Assembly (NCBI GenBank): GCA_041690135.1
Contig: JAWLHY010000011.1
Span: 224,001-288,000, forward strand
Origin: Armatimonadota bacterium
Lineage (GTDB): Bacteria > Armatimonadota > SYMT01
Length of the DNA stretch: 64,000 nucleotides
Direction of reading: 5' to 3'
In this document: positions 12,603 through 64,000 of the stretch, in pieces
How the letters are laid out: every line of letters starts with the position of its first letter
Numbering within the stretch: position 1 is the stretch's first letter
The notes under the pieces: generated by a model
Seen by the model: only the letters and a program-made list of their open reading frames with translations
What the model was told of the DNA's origin: nothing
The model's database searches: none
Made by a program: the position numbers and the translations under genes

Positions 12603-13275
12603 CGTTTACTCCTTGGCTGTGGGGGTACTGGGCGGAGCGCCCATCGACTTATCATTCCCGCTCCCACCCGGGTCATACACCCAATGCTTCTTCGCATGGG
12701 GATGCGACCTCACCCACCTCCTCCGTTCCACAGAGCGGGCAACCACCCCTGCCCTTTCCCGGTAATTCAACCGCCATCCGCAAATCGGATTGTAGACCAG
12801 AGTCCGAATGGACGATGAACCCAGTCGCGTTCGACGACCACTATTCTGACGGCACTCGGTCGGAGTTCATGGTGCCGGTCTGAAGGGCGAGCCATTCCCC
12901 CATACTCCCTTTTCTCCGTTCGGACCGTCACGCATGGCCAATCGTGAAGTTCATAGGAACGCAATCCCATCACCCGAGGTCTCCTCAGCATTCTTCCAAT
13001 TGGGGGGATAGCAACCGCGGAGCGCAAATATCCGTCTATCACATAACCCCCGCGTCGGCCAGGGCGCGGAGAGGCCGCCGCCAGGGACGACCGAAGGAGC
13101 GGTCGCACAGGCGGGCACTTTGGCAGGCGAAATTACGTTGTACAAGAGTAGAAGGCGCGGAGGACGGTCCGGCCTGATGCCGGACTCCATCTGTCGAAGC
13201 GCGCGATGGGGATTCTCGTCCCCTGCCCGGCTTCCCAGGCCCGCGCAGAGCCGGTACGACCGGTAAGGAACGAAA

Positions 13276-14235
13276 ATGGGCAAAGGCATTCCGGTCATCG
13301 ATAAGCTGCTCCGCCGCACTCGCGGCGACTCGCGGGTCGAGCAGGGCCTGAACGGCGCCCTCTCGGGAAGCGAGGATGAGTTCGCCGGTACGAGCAGCGA
13401 AGCGGATGGATGTTACACGCGCGACAACTATTCGGTAGGCCTGGCATACCCCACGCATCGGCGGCTGCTCACCGCCCGGGAAGAGGTGATCCTGGCCGTG
13501 CGAGCCAAGTCCGGGGATACTGCCGCCCGGCAAGCGATGATGGAGGCGAACATTCGCCTGGTCATGAGCATCGCCCGCCGCTACACCTGCAAGAGCCTGA
13601 CGTTCGAAGACCTGGTGCAGGAGGGGATCCTCGGTCTGCTGGAGGCGATCAACAAGTTCGACACCACCCGGGGGCTCCGCTTCAGCACCTACGCCACCTA
13701 CTGGATCCGCCAGGCCATCGTGCGGGCGATCGAGAAGCAGGACCGGTTGATCCGCCTGCCGGTCTACGGGTGCGACGCCGTACGCAAAGTGGAGCGAGCG
13801 GAACGGGCGCTCTCCGAGACGCTCGGTAGACCGCCCACACCGGAGGAAGTTGCCCGCGAGACCGGTTTGCCGGTGCGCCTGGTCAAAAACATCGCCCAGT
13901 ATGGGCAGGACCCGCTTTCCCTGGATGCCATGGTGGGCGACAGCGACGACACGCTGTTTGCCGACCTGGTGGTCGATGCCGACGCCGCGGACCCGGCCGA
14001 TACCGCCCTGGGCGCCATGGACCGCGAGGCGCTGATGGAGCAGGTCCGTTACCTGGAGCCGCGCGAGCAAATGGTGATCGAGCGCCGCTTCGGCCTCTCC
14101 GACGGCAAAGTGCACACGCTTAAGGAGATCGCCGACCAGCTCAAGATGTCGCGCGAGGGCGTCCGCCACGTCCAGCTTCGCGCCCTCCGCAAGCTCAAAG
14201 ATGGCCTGGGCCGCGCCGGCGTGATGCCGGCGTAG
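13276..14235 (+). CDS. RNA polymerase sigma factor, RpoD/RpoS-like (no region 1.1)
   Basis: EANIRLVMSIARRY, DLVQEG..GL, RFSTYATYWIRQAI, IRLPV, TLKEIA..SREGVR. Confidence 0.93.
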   Translation: MGKGIPVIDKLLRRTRGDSRVEQGLNGALSGSEDEFAGTSSEADGCYTRDNYSVGLAYPTHRRLLTAREEVILAVRAKSGDTAARQAMMEANIRLVMSIARRYTCKSLTFEDLVQEGILGLLEAINKFDTTRGLRFSTYATYWIRQAIVRAIEKQDRLIRLPVYGCDAVRKVERAERALSETLGRPPTPEEVARETGLPVRLVKNIAQYGQDPLSLDAMVGDSDDTLFADLVVDADAADPADTALGAMDREALMEQVRYLEPREQMVIERRFGLSDGKVHTLKEIADQLKMSREGVRHVQLRALRKLKDGLGRAGVMPA

Positions 14236-28090: not shown

Positions 28091-28406
28091 TCCTATTGTC
28101 CGTCCGGAAGACCTGGAAGTTTCTCCCCTGGCACGTGAGTAATCAAGAACTTTTCCGATAGAAGAGTTCTTGATATTAGATGATAAATGCTCAAATCAAG
28201 TCCATAAGGAGCTGGAAAGGGGACGAATCTCCCCCCGTTCTGCATTTTTGCGGATGAAAGTCCCTCCACATCTGTTTCCGGGCGGGTATCTTGTTTTAGA
28301 TCACATCGTGTGGCAATCCGAGCCACGGATCCCCCCGCCTTGGCTGACCAGACATGCCGTCACCAGAGAGGGTACGCCTTTACCGGAAGATGCAGATGGA
28401 GGTCAG

Positions 28407-29186
28407 ATGGCGGAAGGACGAGAGGCAGTTTCGACTTCTCAAGAGCAGCTATGGCTGGAGTTCGTGCGTACCCGCGACTCCTCTCTGCGCGAAGTCCTCA
28501 TCAACCATCACCGGCGACTGGCGTATGCGCTGGCCCATCGTTTCCGGGGTCGTGGAGTGCCTCTCGAAGACCTGGTTCAGGTCGCCCTCCTTGGCCTGGT
28601 GCGCGCAGTGGATCGTTTCGACCCACACCTTTCTCCCCACTTTAGCAGTTTCGCGGTTCCGACGATCGTCGGGGAGCTCCGGCGCCATTTCCGGGACTGT
28701 TCCGGTAGCGTCCGCGTCCCCTGGCATGTGCAAGCGCAGGTTCGGTCTCTACACCGGGTAACCGAAGAGTTACTTTCGGTTATGGGGCGCCACCCTACGA
28801 CCTCGGAGATTGCCGTGGCACTCTCCATCTCGGATGATCAGGTTCTGGACCTCATCGCCCTGCGAGAACTGGCCCATCCGCTCCCGGAACACGACCCTCA
28901 TTTCGAGCAGCACCCGTCCCCCAGCTTGGAGGAGCTGGCGGGCCAGGTGGACCTTCGGCTGGCCGGGGTGGAGACGCGGGTCGCGGTGGCGCAGGCCCTT
29001 ACCGGCCTTCCCGTGCAACTCCGTCGCATTATCCGCCTGCGGTATCTGGAAGCGAGGAGTCAGCGTGAAGTCGCCGCGTTGCTGGGCATCTCGCAGATGC
29101 ACGTTTCCCGGCTGGAGAAAGAGGCCCTTACCTGCCTGAGGAATGAACTGGAGGTCCATTCTCCCCGCTCTCCTCCGCGGCCCTGA
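28407..29186 (+). CDS. SigB/SigF/SigG-family sigma factor
   Basis: RBS GGAGG; EDLVQVA..GLVRAVDRFDP, FAVPTIVGELRRHFRD, SQREVAALLGISQMHVSRL. Confidence 0.9.
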   Translation: MAEGREAVSTSQEQLWLEFVRTRDSSLREVLINHHRRLAYALAHRFRGRGVPLEDLVQVALLGLVRAVDRFDPHLSPHFSSFAVPTIVGELRRHFRDCSGSVRVPWHVQAQVRSLHRVTEELLSVMGRHPTTSEIAVALSISDDQVLDLIALRELAHPLPEHDPHFEQHPSPSLEELAGQVDLRLAGVETRVAVAQALTGLPVQLRRIIRLRYLEARSQREVAALLGISQMHVSRLEKEALTCLRNELEVHSPRSPPRP

Positions 29187-29288
29187 AACGACGGGGCTCC
29201 ATGGAACTGGAGGGGTCGGGGAATGCGACACCTCCCCACTTTGACGTTGATGACAGCGCACTCGGCAGTCGCAGACCCGTTCACGAAT

Positions 29289-29336
29289 GGACCTGCTCAG
29301 GAGGGGGCCTGCTCAGGAGGGGACCTGCTCAGGAGT
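29289..29336. repeat. 3 x 16-bp tandem repeat
   Basis: GGACCTGCTCAGGAGG-GGGCCTGCTCAGGAGG-GGACCTGCTCAGGAGT. Confidence 0.85.
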
Positions 29337-29694
29337 GGGAAGGTGCGGAGAGTGCCAGGAGCGCGTGGATGGCGGCATCTCGGCTGGCGTGGAGCGGCAG
29401 AAGGTCCTTCCAGCGGAGAATCTCCAGGGGCCGTTCCACCCGCCAATTGCCGTGGGTGACGATGGCCAGGGGTCGGTGGACGGCGGCCATGCTGCGGCCG
29501 CACCGGAGGAGGAAGCGAGCGCCCCGCCCGTCCATGAACGTGACTTCCTGGAGATTGAGCAAGACCGCGGGAGGCTCGGATGCGAGTGTAGCGGACCAGC
29601 GGGCCTGTGCATCGGCCTCGGTGCAGGCGTCAAGGTCTCCGCTGATGATGAACTCGATGCACTCCTGGGTGGTGTAGGTCTCCACTAGCAGCAT
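29329..29694 (-). CDS. STAS-domain anti-sigma factor antagonist (degenerate)
   Basis: ISGDLDA, VLLNLQEVTFMDGRG, VERPLEI. Confidence 0.8.
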   Translation of the reverse strand: MLLVETYTTQECIEFIISGDLDACTEADAQARWSATLASEPPAVLLNLQEVTFMDGRGARFLLRCGRSMAAVHRPLAIVTHGNWRVERPLEILRWKDLLPLHASRDAAIHALLALSAPSHS

Positions 29695-30115: not shown

Positions 30116-30964
30116 ATGAGCGACCCCACTCCTACCCCTACGCCCGCGCCCGTCACCACCACCGTTCAGCCGACGTCCGACGCCCCGGCGACTCCCGCCG
30201 GAAGTAGGGGAAGAGATCCCGCTCTGGATCCCGACAGCGCCCATGCCCTCTTGCTGGAGTACACGCGGACCCGCGACGTGGAGATCCGCAATCAACTGGT
30301 GCTCCGTTACAGCCGGCTGGTCCACTACCTCGCCAGCCGGTTTTCCGCGAACGGGATCACCGGTCGCGACGACCTGATCCAGGTCGGTTACATGGGCCTG
30401 ATCTCCGCTATCGAGCGCTACGATCCGGAAGCGGGCGGCGGGTTCACCACGTTCGCCATGGTCACCATCCGCGGCGTGATCCAGCACTTCCTCCGCGATC
30501 ACACCTGGGGCCTCAAAGCACCGCGCCGCCTGCGGGAGTTGGCGACCCGCCTCCGCCGCCTGCGGGACGAGCTGGAGCAGAGCCTGGGCCGCCCGCCCTC
30601 GGTGGCGGAAATGGCCGAGGCGGCCGGCGTGACTCGCGAGAAGCTGCTGGAAGCCATGGAAGTCGATCAGCTCTACCAGCCCACCTCCCTGGACGCTTAC
30701 CGCAACGAGGACAGCGGCGACGGCCGGGTGGCGCTGCGCGACTCGATCGGCGGCGAGGACCCGGGCTTCAATGGGGTGGAAGAGAAGGAACTGGTCCGCT
30801 GGGCCCTGGGTACCCTGGACGAGCGCGAGCGCGCCATCATCTACCAGCGGTTCTACGGCGAAGCTTCCCAGGCGGAAGTAGCTGGCGACCTGGGAATCTC
30901 CCAGATGCACGTCTCCCGCCTGGAACGCAAGGCCCTTTCGCGGCTAAGGGCTCTACTGAGCTAA
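30116..30964 (+). CDS. SigB/SigF/SigG-family sigma factor
   Basis: DDLIQVG..GLISAIERYDP, FAMVTIRGVIQHFLRD, SQAEVAGDLGISQMHVSRL. Confidence 0.93.
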   Translation: MSDPTPTPTPAPVTTTVQPTSDAPATPAGSRGRDPALDPDSAHALLLEYTRTRDVEIRNQLVLRYSRLVHYLASRFSANGITGRDDLIQVGYMGLISAIERYDPEAGGGFTTFAMVTIRGVIQHFLRDHTWGLKAPRRLRELATRLRRLRDELEQSLGRPPSVAEMAEAAGVTREKLLEAMEVDQLYQPTSLDAYRNEDSGDGRVALRDSIGGEDPGFNGVEEKELVRWALGTLDERERAIIYQRFYGEASQAEVAGDLGISQMHVSRLERKALSRLRALLS

Positions 30965-44037: not shown

Positions 44038-44076
44038 CGACGACACGCGGCCGGCGCCATCCGATTCGCCGCGACA

Positions 44077-44105
44077 TTGCTATTACGGCGTCGATCTGTT
44101 ATACT
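44077..44105 (+). promoter_or_regulatory. sigma70 promoter with extended -10
   Basis: TTGCTA-N17-TATACT with TGn. Confidence 0.7.
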
Positions 44106-44331
44106 CCGTATGTCAAGTTCAGATCGAGTTCGTACAGCATTACCGTTCCGGAAGACGAGGCCCGTCTCGCTAGTGCTTTGCAAGCCTGGCGTACGGCCTT
44201 TTTTGTTTGCCTTCTGCAGCCAGTTCGCGGCGGACCCTCTCTGTTTGGACCCCATGTGGCTCGGGATGAGCCGCCTTTTTCCCGTTGAGCCGTCACTTCT
44301 TGAAGGGGTCGAACAACGGAGAGGAAACAAA

Positions 44332-44640
44332 ATGAGCAAGCGACTTTTCGTCGGCAACCTGTCCTGGAACATGTCCGAAACGGATCTGCAGACCGCCTTC
44401 GCCCCTTATGGCGCGACGACCGCCACCATCCCGACCGATTACGATGGCCGGGGTAAGGGCTTTGGGTTCGTGGATGTGGGTGAGGACCAGATGAACGCCG
44501 CCATCTCCGCGATGAACGGCAAGGAGATCGACGGCCGCGCCATCAACGTTAACGAAGCCCGCCCGCGCCCCGAGCGCAGCGCCGGCGGCTCCGGTAGCTA
44601 CGGTGGCGGCAACTCCGGCCGCGGCGGCCGGCGCTGGTAA
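44332..44640 (+). CDS. RNA-binding protein (RRM, Gly-rich tail)
   Basis: LFVGNL (RNP2), KGFGFV (RNP1), GRAINVNEARPR. Confidence 0.95.
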   Translation: MSKRLFVGNLSWNMSETDLQTAFAPYGATTATIPTDYDGRGKGFGFVDVGEDQMNAAISAMNGKEIDGRAINVNEARPRPERSAGGSGSYGGGNSGRGGRRW

Positions 44641-60953: not shown

Positions 60954-61487
60954 ATGGCACGTAAGAAGCGCGACCCGCAGCGAGAAGCGCCGGTGGAGAA
61001 GCTGGTCCTCACCTACGAGGTTCGGGATGAAGACATCCGCCGTTTCCACGACTACCACCTCTGGCGCCACACCCGCCGCGCGCCGGCCGCCCTGTTCGTC
61101 ATCGCGATCGCCGGGACCGCCAGCGCGCTGATGTTCGCCGGCGAGGCGCCGCCCCTCTCCACCGCCCTCTATAGCGGGGTCTTTCCGATCCTGGCCTTCC
61201 TCTGGGTCTTCTGGTACTCGAAGCGGAAGATGGTCCGCATCGCCCGGGAGACGGGCGCCCTGGGCCCGCAGACCCTGGAGTTCACGAAGCGTGGCCTCTT
61301 CCAGCGCCGGGCGAACGGGGCCGAATCCCGCCGGCCGTGGGAGCATCCGGTCCGCATCATCGAACGGGGCGAGCAGGTCTTCGTTTACCTGAACCCGGTC
61401 CAGGCGCTGATTATCCCCCGGAGCGCTTTCGCCTCGCCCGAAGAACTGGAGCGGTTCCGCGCGGCGTTGGAACATTGGTCTGCTTGA
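60954..61487 (+). CDS. YcxB-like membrane protein
   Basis: Two TMs then ..W..I.E..ALIIPRSAF. Confidence 0.75.
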   Translation: MARKKRDPQREAPVEKLVLTYEVRDEDIRRFHDYHLWRHTRRAPAALFVIAIAGTASALMFAGEAPPLSTALYSGVFPILAFLWVFWYSKRKMVRIARETGALGPQTLEFTKRGLFQRRANGAESRRPWEHPVRIIERGEQVFVYLNPVQALIIPRSAFASPEELERFRAALEHWSA

Positions 61488-61500
61488 GGAGTTTTCAGGT

Positions 61501-61529
61501 TTGGGCAGACCCCGGAATCCCGGTATACT
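61501..61529 (+). promoter_or_regulatory. Promoter for the riboswitch leader
   Basis: TTGGGC-N17-TATACT. Confidence 0.6.
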
Positions 61530-61570
61530 CCAGGTGGAGAGCGGACCGCACCCGCTTTCCGATAGAACCA

Positions 61571-61713
61571 GACGCCTAATCCTGCGAAGGAACGGGGGAA
61601 CCACTCTGTTGGGGCGAAGGAGGGTTCAGGCAGCGACAACGCCGCCGGGACCGTCCCGGGTAGCTCTTCTCACCCGAGCCCGTCAGCTAACCTCGTCGGC
61701 GTGGCGCGAAGAG
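61571..61713 (+). ncRNA. c-di-AMP riboswitch (ydaO/yuaA class)
   Basis: ACGCC-TAAT-CCT(GCGA)AGG-AACGGGGGAACCA..TTGGGGCGAA..CGGGT-AGCTCTTCTC-ACCCG-AGCCCGTCAGCTAACCTCGTC-GGCGT..GAAGAG; P1 and the CTCTTC/GAAGAG pseudoknot are both present. Confidence 0.92.
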
Positions 61714-61772
61714 TCCAGCAAAGCGCCCCTTCCGGACAGCGCCGTCCGGGTAGCGCCTGCCGCATTCGACCC

Positions 61773-61803
61773 GCCACGCAGCCGCGTGGCCTTTTTGTTG
61801 TTT
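61773..61803 (+). terminator. Riboswitch expression-platform terminator
   Basis: GCCACGC-AGCC-GCGTGGC-CTTTTTGTTGTTT. Confidence 0.8.
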
Positions 61804-61847
61804 GCGGTGGAAGTGGGGTCGCCTGCGTTTCCCACGGAGATGTAAGG

Positions 61848-62078
61848 ATGCTGTTCGGCACCAAGGAGCGGTCCGCGACCGCTCGGGTCGTTAGCGAAGA
61901 TGCCGTCCTGTTGGGTCAGGATTTCCTGTTCGTCAACCATTCCGTCCCGCTTCCCGATGCGGAGCTGCGGTCGGCGGTCCCTCCCACCGATGCGGGGGAC
62001 TGGCTCCTGGAATTACATAAGGAAGGCGGCGGCGTGGTGCGCGTGCTGTTCGCCGAAGAAGACGAGGAGGAAGAGTGA
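61848..62078 (+). CDS. Small acidic hypothetical protein (76 aa)
   Basis: GGAG upstream; GC3-rich; ends EEDEEEE; stop overlaps next ATG (TGATG). Confidence 0.7.
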   Translation: MLFGTKERSATARVVSEDAVLLGQDFLFVNHSVPLPDAELRSAVPPTDAGDWLLELHKEGGGVVRVLFAEEDEEEE

Positions 62079-62494
62079 TGGCCCTCCCGGGCACGGGACC
62101 TTCTCCCGCCTCTTCGCCCCGGGGTGAGTTTCCACCGGAACCGTTCCGGTTGGAGATCACCGGCGACGGCCCGCGGATCACCGCCTCCGTAACCGGCCCT
62201 CTGGACGTGGAACATACCCCGACCTTCCTGGCGCGAGTGCGACTCCGGTGCCATCCCGAGTGCCGGGTAGCGGTCGATCTCAGCGGCGTGCCGTACCTGG
62301 ACAGCACGGGCGTGAGGGGACTCCTCGCCCTGAAACGGGAACTGGAAGAGCGCCACGGGGAGCTCTGCCTGATCGTCTCGAGGGGGAGCCGGGTGGAGTG
62401 GATCCTCCGCCTGCTGCAGATGGAACAGCAACTGGGGACCCGCCCGGAGCCCGAGGCCCCGGTAGATGAGCCGGACCTGCTGCGCGCGAATTGA
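62078..62494 (+). CDS. STAS-domain anti-sigma factor antagonist
   Basis: VTGPLD, VAVDLSGVPYLDSTG (phospho-Ser retained), VEWILRL. Confidence 0.88.
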   Translation: MALPGTGPSPASSPRGEFPPEPFRLEITGDGPRITASVTGPLDVEHTPTFLARVRLRCHPECRVAVDLSGVPYLDSTGVRGLLALKRELEERHGELCLIVSRGSRVEWILRLLQMEQQLGTRPEPEAPVDEPDLLRAN

Positions 62495-62699
62495 ATCCCG
62501 CGAGTGTGAGCCGCTCGGCATCCGGGGCATACTGGATGCCGAGCGGCCCCAACGCCAGGGGTGAACTGTGCCCCGTACTGCACGCGGGCCTCACCTCTAC
62601 CACAGCGCACGAGGGAATCCCGCGTGTGTTGACCCACGCCAACCCAGCCCTGAAGACGGTATCCTGAGCGGCGAAAAGCACCCCGTGATGGGCACGAGT

Positions 62700-62796
62700 T
62701 CCCCCTTCTTCCGTTCGGACCGGGTACCCGCAAGTGGGTGATGGGCTGCGTCGGAGAAGGCCGGGTACCCACGAAGTGGGTGGCGGGGGATGAGGT
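62700..62796 (+). repeat. Dispersed hairpin repeat with two nested mini-elements
   Basis: Same scaffold as 5944-5992, interrupted by CGGGTACCCGCAAGTGGGTG and CGGGTACCCACGAAGTGGGTG. Confidence 0.8.
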
Positions 62797-63014
62797 CACC
62801 CGGTCACCGCACACGCCAGAGACAACCCACACGGGGTGAGGACCCTCCGGAGACCGGACCCATCAGAGTTAACCCACATGGGGTCGTGGCGGTTCGGAAG
62901 AGGTGCCAGCCGGCGGGACGGGGGAGTGGTCCATTGCCCGGCCGGGACAGAGATCCGGCCCTACTCCCCCGCGTGTTCGCAAAGGGGTGATGTGGGAGGC
63001 AATGCAAGTGCCCC

Positions 63015-63137
63015 GTAGCTAGGACAGAACGGCTACCGCCGCGGGCGGGACGCCCTGCGCCACGGGAGCCTGGTAGCTGAGACCCAAGACGGCTACCGTC
63101 GCGGGCGAGACGCCCCGCGCCACGGTACGGGCAGCTA
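63015..63137. repeat. Two 60-bp tandem REP-like units
   Basis: ACGGCTACCGyCGCGGGCGrGACGCCCyGCGCCACGG at 63029 and 63089. Confidence 0.8.
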
Positions 63138-63251
63138 CCCCACGCGCATCAAGCCAAAGCGTCAACCACTCTTCCCGCCAACTTCTCCCCCTTCCATCCC
63201 CACTCCCTCTTTCGTTCCTTCTTTGCGTCTTTGCGTCTTGGCGCGAGATTA

Positions 63252-64000
63252 TTACCCCGTGCGGATGTAGAAGAGGAACTCCTGGACTTCGTCGCCTTTG
63301 TAGACGCGGTTCGCGCTGTCTACGTCGGCGCGGAAGCGGGGGTAGGTGAACTTGCTGTACTCGCGGATGCCGGAGGGGGACTTCCGGTCGAGCATCGCGA
63401 TCAGCTCCTCCTCTTCGATCAGGCCCTCGTTGTTGTAGGAGACGAGGATGTGGCGAAAACGGGCCTTCTCCAGCAGGTCCGCCATGGCGGTGCGGGCGCG
63501 GGTGCGCATGGCGAAGGCGGAGCGCTTGCCCTCGTCCGGGCGGAGGCCGGTCTTGCCGACCGGGGTGAACGCCTCCAGGTCCCAGCAGGCGATGGTCTCC
63601 AGCAGGTGGTAGTTGGCGTGGTACTGGCGCCGGTTGTAAGGGGGATCGATGTAGAGGATCTCCTGCTCCGCTTCGGCGGCGAGTTCGCCCACCAGGGCGT
63701 TGGCGTCCCGGCGGTAGACCCGGTGCGGCTTGTGGCCGTTGAGGAGCAGCGGCACCCGTAGCTGCAGCGGTTGGGCGGCGGACGGCTTCAGGTGTTTCAG
63801 GTAGGCGCCGTAGATGCTGGCCGTGTTGGCGACCATGTCCATCGACTCCACCAGCGAAGCCAGCAGCACGTGGAACTCGGCCTCGTCCACCCAGCCCTGC
63901 CGGCGCCACTCTTCCAGGGTGTCGCGGATCGCCTGGCATGCCATGCCGTTGCGTCGGCTGTAGTAGTTCCGGCCCGCGGAGCCCCCTTCGCAGTAGGTGT
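63252..64000 (-). CDS. DNA adenine methyltransferase (D12/FokI-like), 5'-truncated by window
   Basis: VANTASIYGAYLK, ILYIDPPYN.RQY..NYHLLETIA, VSYNNEG; frame open to window end. Confidence 0.9.
   Translation of the reverse strand, partial: TYCEGGSAGRNYYSRRNGMACQAIRDTLEEWRRQGWVDEAEFHVLLASLVESMDMVANTASIYGAYLKHLKPSAAQPLQLRVPLLLNGHKPHRVYRRDANALVGELAAEAEQEILYIDPPYNRRQYHANYHLLETIACWDLEAFTPVGKTGLRPDEGKRSAFAMRTRARTAMADLLEKARFRHILVSYNNEGLIEEEELIAMLDRKSPSGIREYSKFTYPRFRADVDSANRVYKGDEVQEFLFYIRTG

Follow-up and report, generated by a model that had tools for sequence, protein, structure and literature searches.

Riboswitches that bind cyclic di-adenosine monophosphate (c-di-AMP), known as the ydaO/yuaA class, neighbor genes for K+ and amino acid transporters, cell-wall remodeling, and the osmotic response, according to the available text of PMC7266159 and PMC7288161; the latter text also names "sporulation" genes. 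In Bacillus subtilis, c-di-AMP riboswitches negatively regulate kimA and ktrAB, i.e., they act as OFF switches (PMC7288161, available text). Here, we describe a member of this class in 64,000 nucleotides of an Armatimonadota genome (contig JAWLHY010000011.1, positions 224,001 to 288,000; the whole stretch is called the window, and coordinates refer to it). The riboswitch lies ahead of two genes, one for a 76-amino-acid protein (ORF1) and one for a stand-alone STAS-domain protein (ORF2). Like the B. subtilis kimA (ydaO) and ktrAB leaders, it combines a full match to the Rfam family RF00379 with a terminator/antiterminator OFF platform. Known RF00379 members precede transporters, osmolyte systems, and cell-wall enzymes, whereas the member in the window precedes an orphan 76-amino-acid protein and a stand-alone STAS protein. 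The class of riboswitch is known; its output is what is unusual.

The second pertinent comparison is with the partner-switching modules RsbV–RsbW–SigB and SpoIIAA–SpoIIAB–SigF. The likeness is that the STAS protein in the window has a single domain with the DSxG serine aligned, and that sigma factors of the SigB/F/G family are encoded in the window. Unlike modules with the canonical partner-switching operon layout, the operon has no adjacent kinase/anti-sigma factor or PP2C phosphatase, and its STAS protein falls below the cut-off of the anti-anti-sigma family TIGR00377. The input would differ too: in the Rsb and SpoIIA modules it is a phosphatase, whereas here an RNA sensor would provide it by setting the dosage of transcription.

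Two further systems bear on the locus. The dauA motif is a riboswitch candidate of unknown ligand that lies before STAS-protein genes in Streptomyces and is a proposed OFF switch (PMC11109978, available text). It resembles the leader in the window in being a structured RNA ahead of a STAS-domain gene with proposed OFF behavior. It differs in forming a three-stem junction that occludes the Shine–Dalgarno sequence, in acting at translation, in being confined to Streptomyces, and in having, in that text, no connection to c-di-AMP. Thus, RNA control of STAS genes has precedent, and c-di-AMP control of them has none among the papers listed. In Chlamydia, a relative of the planctomycetes in the PVC superphylum, c-di-AMP and an RsbV/RsbW/RsbU module are both developmental signals; the available text of PMC13463777 treats them as separate inputs, poses their integration as an open question, and describes no riboswitch link. 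By contrast, the link in the window would be direct, via transcription of an RsbV-like gene. The original prediction for this locus, made from the DNA letters, called a direct connection from c-di-AMP to partner switching one that its author had not seen described. Our literature search agrees: among the papers listed, it found no link between a c-di-AMP riboswitch and a STAS or anti-sigma protein, with the proviso that the primary gene-association tables of the class may hold a rare entry. The literature likewise yielded nothing on c-di-AMP riboswitches in combination with Planctomycetes.

The best explanation as a whole is that the leader is an OFF switch on the ORF1–STAS operon and that the operon feeds partner switching, and we incline, if only slightly, to believe it. 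Its parts differ in strength. Judged from sequence, the riboswitch and the operon are very likely real and functional. A partner-switching or sigma output is plausible and unproven, and we place it somewhat on the improbable side.

The c-di-AMP aptamer and its expression platform

The aptamer occupies positions 61563 to 61715 of the plus strand. It scores 82.5 bits against the RF00379 covariance model, for which the gathering score is 38 (E = 1.1e-17), and the match spans the whole model (positions 1–134 of 134). A permissive scan of 61400–63300 recovers it (E = 3.3e-19), and the only other Rfam match in the 64-kb window is one tRNA (1315–1387). All consensus helices are aligned, including P1 (61573–61576, CGCC, with 61698–61701, GGCG), the long-range helix, and the internal hairpins of the pseudo-two-fold architecture. 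The alignment contains only two non-canonical pairs, both flanking a 27-nucleotide insertion that enlarges the variable stem. The stem is folded as a 38-nucleotide hairpin (61619 to 61656, plus strand).

Other members of the class provide the yardstick. The GTDB collection, with one genome per species, was scanned for the window's 23-nucleotide core from the 3' half of the aptamer, as an exact IUPAC match. Because this core carries the less common GAG variant (see below), the sample is restricted to GAG-variant aptamers; the source genome lies outside the surveyed loci. The core was matched in at least 120 other loci (at least 120 other genomes). All of the 20 loci that were checked match RF00379, with scores of 53–102 bits and lengths of 127–178 nucleotides. 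Thus, the core pattern is a reliable proxy for the family. Since the aptamer in the window, at 153 nucleotides, falls inside that range, its length is ordinary. The extended variable stem to which the original prediction drew attention is therefore present, but as ordinary length variation. By its sequence, the RNA in the window is a genuine and ordinary member of the ydaO/c-di-AMP riboswitch class.

The closest aptamer among the matches listed belongs to a metagenome-assembled genome (MAG) labeled Armatimonadetes (L018, contig JACQGL010000233.1, 1880–2050; 78% identity over 127 nucleotides). The two are identical throughout the antiterminator arm described next (...GGCGTGGCGCGAAGAGT), show compensatory changes in the first hairpin, and have a similarly extended variable stem. 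The L018 contig stops 27 nucleotides past the core, before any regulated gene, and shares no upstream synteny with the window.

Downstream of the aptamer, a terminator search identified an intrinsic terminator (61773 to 61804, plus strand). Its stem (61773–61779 with 61784–61790) comprises seven pairs, six of them G–C, around the four-nucleotide loop AGCC; CTTTTTGTTG stands directly 3' of the stem, and the element as a whole ends in CUUUUUGUUGUUUG. Competing with it is a predicted antiterminator, obtained both by duplex folding and as the minimum free energy (MFE) structure of the nascent transcript, with its 5' arm at 61699 to 61710 (plus strand). Specifically, GCGUGGCG (61699–61706) pairs with 61772–61779, and CGAA (61707–61710) pairs with 61765–61768. 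The 5' arm covers three of the four nucleotides of the P1 3' strand. The segment GCGUGGC (61699–61705), which starts within that strand, consists of the same seven bases as the terminator 3' arm (61784–61790), and it is thereby able to pair with the terminator 5' arm. The antiterminator duplex has an energy of -19.6 kcal/mol versus -15.5 kcal/mol for the terminator arms, and in a nascent transcript ending at 61783, where the terminator 3' arm is not yet made, the antiterminator helix is the MFE structure. Forcing P1 in the fold causes the terminator to form.

Because the competing antiterminator overlaps the P1 3' strand, OFF-switch logic can be read from the layout. The mechanism would run as follows. 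When c-di-AMP is bound, P1 would be held shut, leaving 61772–61779 free for the terminator (61773–61790, with its U tract), and transcription would end 44 nucleotides short of ORF1. When c-di-AMP is low, 61699–61710 would pair with 61765–61779, blocking the terminator and permitting read-through into ORF1 and the STAS gene. The leader thus described would be a ydaO-class OFF switch working by transcription termination on a two-gene operon. Both the response to ligand and the direction of the physiological signal are what we infer from this arrangement. With mutually exclusive helices readable from its sequence, the leader is a clean case for the study of termination.

A promoter-like site (61502 to 61529, plus strand) sits between the aptamer and the stop codon (61485–61487) of an upstream YcxB-like gene (60954–61487). 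Identified by consensus match only, it consists of TGGGCA as the -35 element, a 16-nucleotide spacer, and TATACT as the -10 element; one such site was found in 61300–63300, and 0.2 are expected from shuffled sequences. The full aptamer and the terminator had been predicted and are borne out by these analyses, the predicted OFF direction accords with the layout, and the predicted promoter corresponds to this weak consensus match. Separately, GTTT-N18-GGTAT, which we take to be a SigB/F-type promoter consensus, was considered at the leader (61499–61526). It is the single match in the window, but one or more matches occurred in 37 of 100 shuffles, and the candidate was rejected as not significant.

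Several features of the leader weigh against this explanation. The promoter-like site matches only 9 of 12 positions of the sigma-70-like consensus. At three unpaired sites that are conserved in the Rfam consensus, the aptamer has a different sequence (GAA to GAG, UA to CC, and A to C). The unconstrained MFE fold of the full leader, computed with no ligand term, already holds the terminator (-104.8 kcal/mol), and the P1-forced and antiterminator-forced states lie at -99.6 kcal/mol each. Folding shows that the alternative helices exist; thermodynamics alone is no demonstration of switching. One could propose, from these departures, from the terminator state of the unconstrained fold, and from the atypical cargo, that the aptamer has decayed or been re-tuned, that it does not respond to c-di-AMP, and that the leader is a constitutive attenuator or a sensor of another signal. 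We consider this very unlikely. The score of 82.5 bits is mid-range among the 20 checked representatives, most of which precede K+ transporters, and all consensus helices are present, with the two flagged pairs confined to the edges of the variable-stem insertion. Moreover, all three variants recur in natural copies: CC is carried by 9 of the 120 sequences in which the motif could be read, C by 11 of 121 (both tallies include the window), and GAG by all of the at least 120 loci, by construction of the search pattern.

A two-gene operon ending in a STAS protein

The OFF switch would act on two coupled genes. ORF1 (61848 to 62078, plus strand) starts with ATG at 61848, ends with TGA at 62076–62078, and is preceded by GGAG nine nucleotides ahead of its start. 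Its translation is an acidic protein of 76 amino acids from no known family (isoelectric point 4.3) with the C-terminal sequence EEDEEEE. ORF2 (62078 to 62494, plus strand) starts with ATG at 62078 and stops at 62492–62494, so that the last base of the ORF1 stop is also the first base of its start (TGATG). The sequence GAGGAGG lies 8–14 nucleotides upstream of the STAS ATG, within the acidic-tail codons of ORF1 (GAGGAGGAAGAG). This arrangement suggests that ORF1 and the STAS gene are translationally coupled. The TGATG-linked pair is the one originally predicted, with the ORF1 start at 61848 rather than 61849.

The operon probably ends in a strong hairpin that has no U tract (62497 to 62560, plus strand; an inverted repeat). 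It begins three bases past the STAS stop, and its arms (62497–62523 and 62534–62560) are 78% complementary. Beyond it, a convergent gene on the opposite strand encodes a D12 adenine methyltransferase (63252–63998). From the hairpin and the convergent neighbor, we take the transcription unit to consist of two genes.

ORF2 encodes a single-domain STAS protein of 138 amino acids. PF01740 is matched over residues 37–119 of 138 with 43.7 bits (cut-off 22.6); PF13466 scores 41.8 bits, and there is no other domain. The DSTG motif, predicted to be intact, is found at residues 75–78, with the Ser76 codon at 62303–62305. The closest solved relatives are the SpoIIAA-like protein 4hyl_A (E = 4.6e-4) and the Thermotoga anti-sigma antagonist TM1442 (1sbo_A, E = 0.026); the STAS domain of a SULTR transporter is a weaker match (E = 0.17). 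YLDSTG in ORF2 aligns with YMSSAG in 4hyl_A and YMDSAG in TM1442, which places the serine at the start of helix 2. We take the aligned serine to be the phosphorylation site in 4hyl_A and TM1442. On this alignment, ORF2 classifies as a SpoIIAA/RsbV-like single-domain protein that keeps a phosphorylatable Ser76.

Neither protein brings relatives with it. ORF1 matches no Pfam or NCBIfam family at E ≤ 1, and a sequence search against the Protein Data Bank (PDB) gave nothing below E = 0.7, i.e., no relative. In a word-index search of 5.8 billion proteins, ORF1 found only itself; the same search found no relative of the STAS protein. In the ESM Atlas, the best score for ORF1 was 0.88, to unnamed clusters and under the lead threshold. 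With no relatives of either protein, the pairing of riboswitch and STAS gene has no evolutionary support, a point that tells against the functional interpretation of the operon. Single-sequence AlphaFold2 models are of low confidence for both ORF1 (pLDDT 53.8, all-beta) and the STAS protein (pLDDT 53.0). A predicted complex of the two scored 0.00 against a mark of 0.34, with both chains folded without alignments, and so speaks neither for nor against binding.

These results bear on whether the STAS gene matters at all. ORF1 could be the relevant cargo, or it could be a mere leader and no real gene, in which case the STAS association would be incidental, within a recent, lineage-specific operon with no signaling role. 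The orphan status of both proteins and their low-confidence models are in keeping with this idea, as are the use of the ORF1 acidic-tail codons as the STAS ribosome-binding site and the finding that the same cargo occurs at no other sampled riboswitch, among the matches listed. Yet the G+C content of ORF1 by codon position (0.76/0.39/0.75) is coding-like, the gene has its own GGAG, it exists as a predicted protein in a public collection, and the one-base stop/start overlap argues for co-expression. We regard the incidental association as improbable.

Between the STAS operon and the methyltransferase gene lies a non-coding stretch of about 750 nucleotides (62495–63251) that is rich in short repeats and has no Rfam match below E = 0.4. 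It contains two copies of a 37-nucleotide repeat (63029–63065 and 63089–63125; 92% identical, spacing 60), two copies of a 38-nucleotide repeat (62800–62837 and 62847–62884), and several hairpins of the CCCAC...GTGGG type.

Genes behind other c-di-AMP riboswitches

The genes downstream of the surveyed riboswitches show what this sample of the class controls. Open reading frames (ORFs) were counted if they were on the same strand, encoded at least 50 amino acids, and started within 1600 nucleotides, using 80 loci with 2-kb flanks. From 76 of the 80 loci, 135 such ORFs were obtained; in the other four (L013, L018, L037, and L041), the contig ends before any such ORF. By Pfam, the loci encode K_trans (Kup) in 14 of 76 cases, AA_permease_2 proteins of about 600 amino acids, which are probably KimA-like, in 18, TrkH in 3, and KdpA in 1. 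These K+ uptake-type genes thus account for 36 of the 76 loci, among the matches listed. SBP_bac_5 and Radical_SAM follow with 4 loci each, and NlpC/P60 with 3; single cases include an OpuA-type ABC system, Mrp, a P-type ATPase, Usp, and M23. Planctomycetota-labeled loci make up 11 of 120 listed, and the four with a recognizable first gene (L024, L035, L043, and L046) all encode a KimA-like permease.

A stand-alone STAS protein appears in none of the 135 downstream ORFs from the 76 loci, among the matches listed, so the operon predicted here has no counterpart behind these homologous aptamers. Of the other 40 loci, 34 yielded one N-terminal fragment each, and these 34 fragments, which have low power, contain no STAS; they include 6 K_trans and 2 AA_permease_2. 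When ORF1 and the STAS protein served as phmmer queries, the 4,942 six-frame ORFs of the at least 120 loci gave no match at E ≤ 10, in a test so insensitive that it also missed the STAS domain of the transporter described next. STAS cargo behind a c-di-AMP riboswitch is rare in this sample, among the matches listed, and the locus in the window is a single instance.

The only other STAS domain downstream of a c-di-AMP riboswitch, among the matches listed, is found in a Limnochordales MAG (L078, 323–1951, minus strand). There, the gene immediately behind a riboswitch of 90.1 bits encodes an anion transporter of the SulP family that has STAS as its C-terminal domain. In that SulP/SLC26 protein, STAS is part of a membrane transporter of 543 amino acids (Sulfate_transp plus STAS), whereas the STAS protein in the window is free, at 138 amino acids, and is not fused to Sulfate_transp.

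The survey lends weight to a different role for ORF2. The riboswitch and the operon could work as proposed, with a non-canonical STAS protein that serves ion or osmolyte homeostasis by regulating a transporter or an enzyme, possibly together with the 76-amino-acid protein. The sampled regulon is mostly ion transport, as the 36 loci above show. PMC8256260 (available text) reviews STAS-only proteins whose roles go beyond the control of sigma factors. An ion-homeostasis role is a serious rival, given that such roles are known and that the sole other sampled STAS domain is that of an anion transporter. It also accords with the lack of an anti-sigma kinase adjacent to the operon and with the position of the STAS protein below the anti-anti-sigma cut-off. 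On the other side, ORF2 carries no transporter domain, is nearer to SpoIIAA/RsbV-type proteins than to the SULTR STAS domain by the E-values given above, and keeps the phosphorylatable serine, and sigma factors of the SigB/F/G type are present in the window. Serious as it is, we judge a homeostasis role unlikely.

Some surveyed loci merit mention in their own right. In an uncultured bacterium (L055, CAVYHJ010000002.1), the genes after a core-pattern match encode an M23 peptidase and, behind it, two P-II-like proteins (PF00543), a signaling-type cargo. In Tepidiforma (L052 and L080), a small ORF and a gene for an ABM-domain protein stand behind the aptamer; a LuxR-type response regulator is also present in L052, which would be a second case of a regulator behind this riboswitch class. 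In Paenibacillus, Cohnella, and a Bacillota MAG (L007, L019, L020, and L036), a radical-SAM protein of about 390 amino acids comes first after the core-pattern match, an association absent from those named in the available text of the class reviews.

Sigma factors in the window and the proposed output

We return to the explanation to which we incline, in which the operon feeds partner switching. The most likely target of newly made, unphosphorylated STAS protein would be a partner-switching module, with a kinase/anti-sigma partner that would be encoded elsewhere in the genome. Low c-di-AMP, as under K+ or osmotic imbalance, would thereby be coupled to an alternative-sigma or other partner-switch output. 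Both the partner and the sigma output are part of what we infer. In a more specific version, the riboswitch would set the dosage of a fresh RsbV-like antagonist, a fall in c-di-AMP would turn on a SigB/F-type general stress sigma factor with no sensor phosphatase, and the 76-amino-acid protein would be a possible accessory. We hold this version to be doubtful.

Two SigB/F-type sigma genes had been predicted in the window, and two are present. The first (30116–30964, plus strand) matches TIGR02980 with 241.9 bits, above the cut-off of 234.35; the second (28170–29186, plus strand) has the same family as its best match, with 209.6 bits, below the cut-off. These two SigB/F/G-like genes indicate that the organism uses this sigma class. 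A third sigma gene (13267–14232) is RpoD/RpoS-like. A second STAS gene (29329–29694, minus strand) is located between the SigB/F/G-like pair; it has DGRG in place of the DSTG of the riboswitch-controlled protein and therefore lacks the phosphorylatable serine. It scores 37.8 bits against TIGR00377, also below the cut-off. The segment 28170–30964, with two sigma genes flanking the DGRG STAS gene and no kinase nearby, may be a phosphorylation-independent partner-switch module. The minus-strand ORFs 28452–28748 and 28773–29312 beside the second STAS gene were rejected as genes, as the real gene there is the plus-strand sigma factor.

A route from low c-di-AMP via an antagonist to free sigma factor would fit the organism's parts list. 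The original prediction had gone further, with the STAS protein antagonizing an anti-sigma factor and so releasing a SigB/F sigma; that step gained no backing here, and the following observations speak against it. The STAS protein scores 33.9 bits against TIGR00377 (ant_ant_sig), below the NCBIfam cut-off of 53.45 (E = 2.2e-8). The 140 ORFs scanned across the window (5 + 46 + 89) include no HATPase_c_2 kinase of the RsbW/SpoIIAB type, in the operon or beyond it, no PP2C/SpoIIE phosphatase domain, and no DisA_N diadenylate cyclase domain, so that neither the cyclase nor the kinase that the prediction would call for is among them. The sigma genes lie about 32 kb from the STAS operon and have their own, non-phosphorylatable STAS neighbor. 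Partner, adjacency, and conservation are thus all missing from the case.

If the proposal is true, there would be an RNA-based input to partner switching and a concrete link from c-di-AMP to a sigma factor, which the available text of PMC13463777 poses as an open question for chlamydiae. The proposal would also connect K+ or osmotic status with alternative-sigma activity by a path that is simple and can be tested. If this riboswitch copy gates a partner-switching protein, the c-di-AMP regulon extends from effectors to a regulatory hub. The locus has been seen once, in a single genome of uncultured type, and its proteins are orphans; it may be a lineage-specific oddity.

As a whole, the window has a G+C content of 66% and encodes several proteins with DUF1559 and N-terminal methylation motifs, a combination that marks planctomycetes and gives the window a planctomycete-like look. 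In an ORF at 44038–44637 (plus strand), RRM_1, an RNA recognition motif of eukaryotic type, is matched with E = 6.6e-15.

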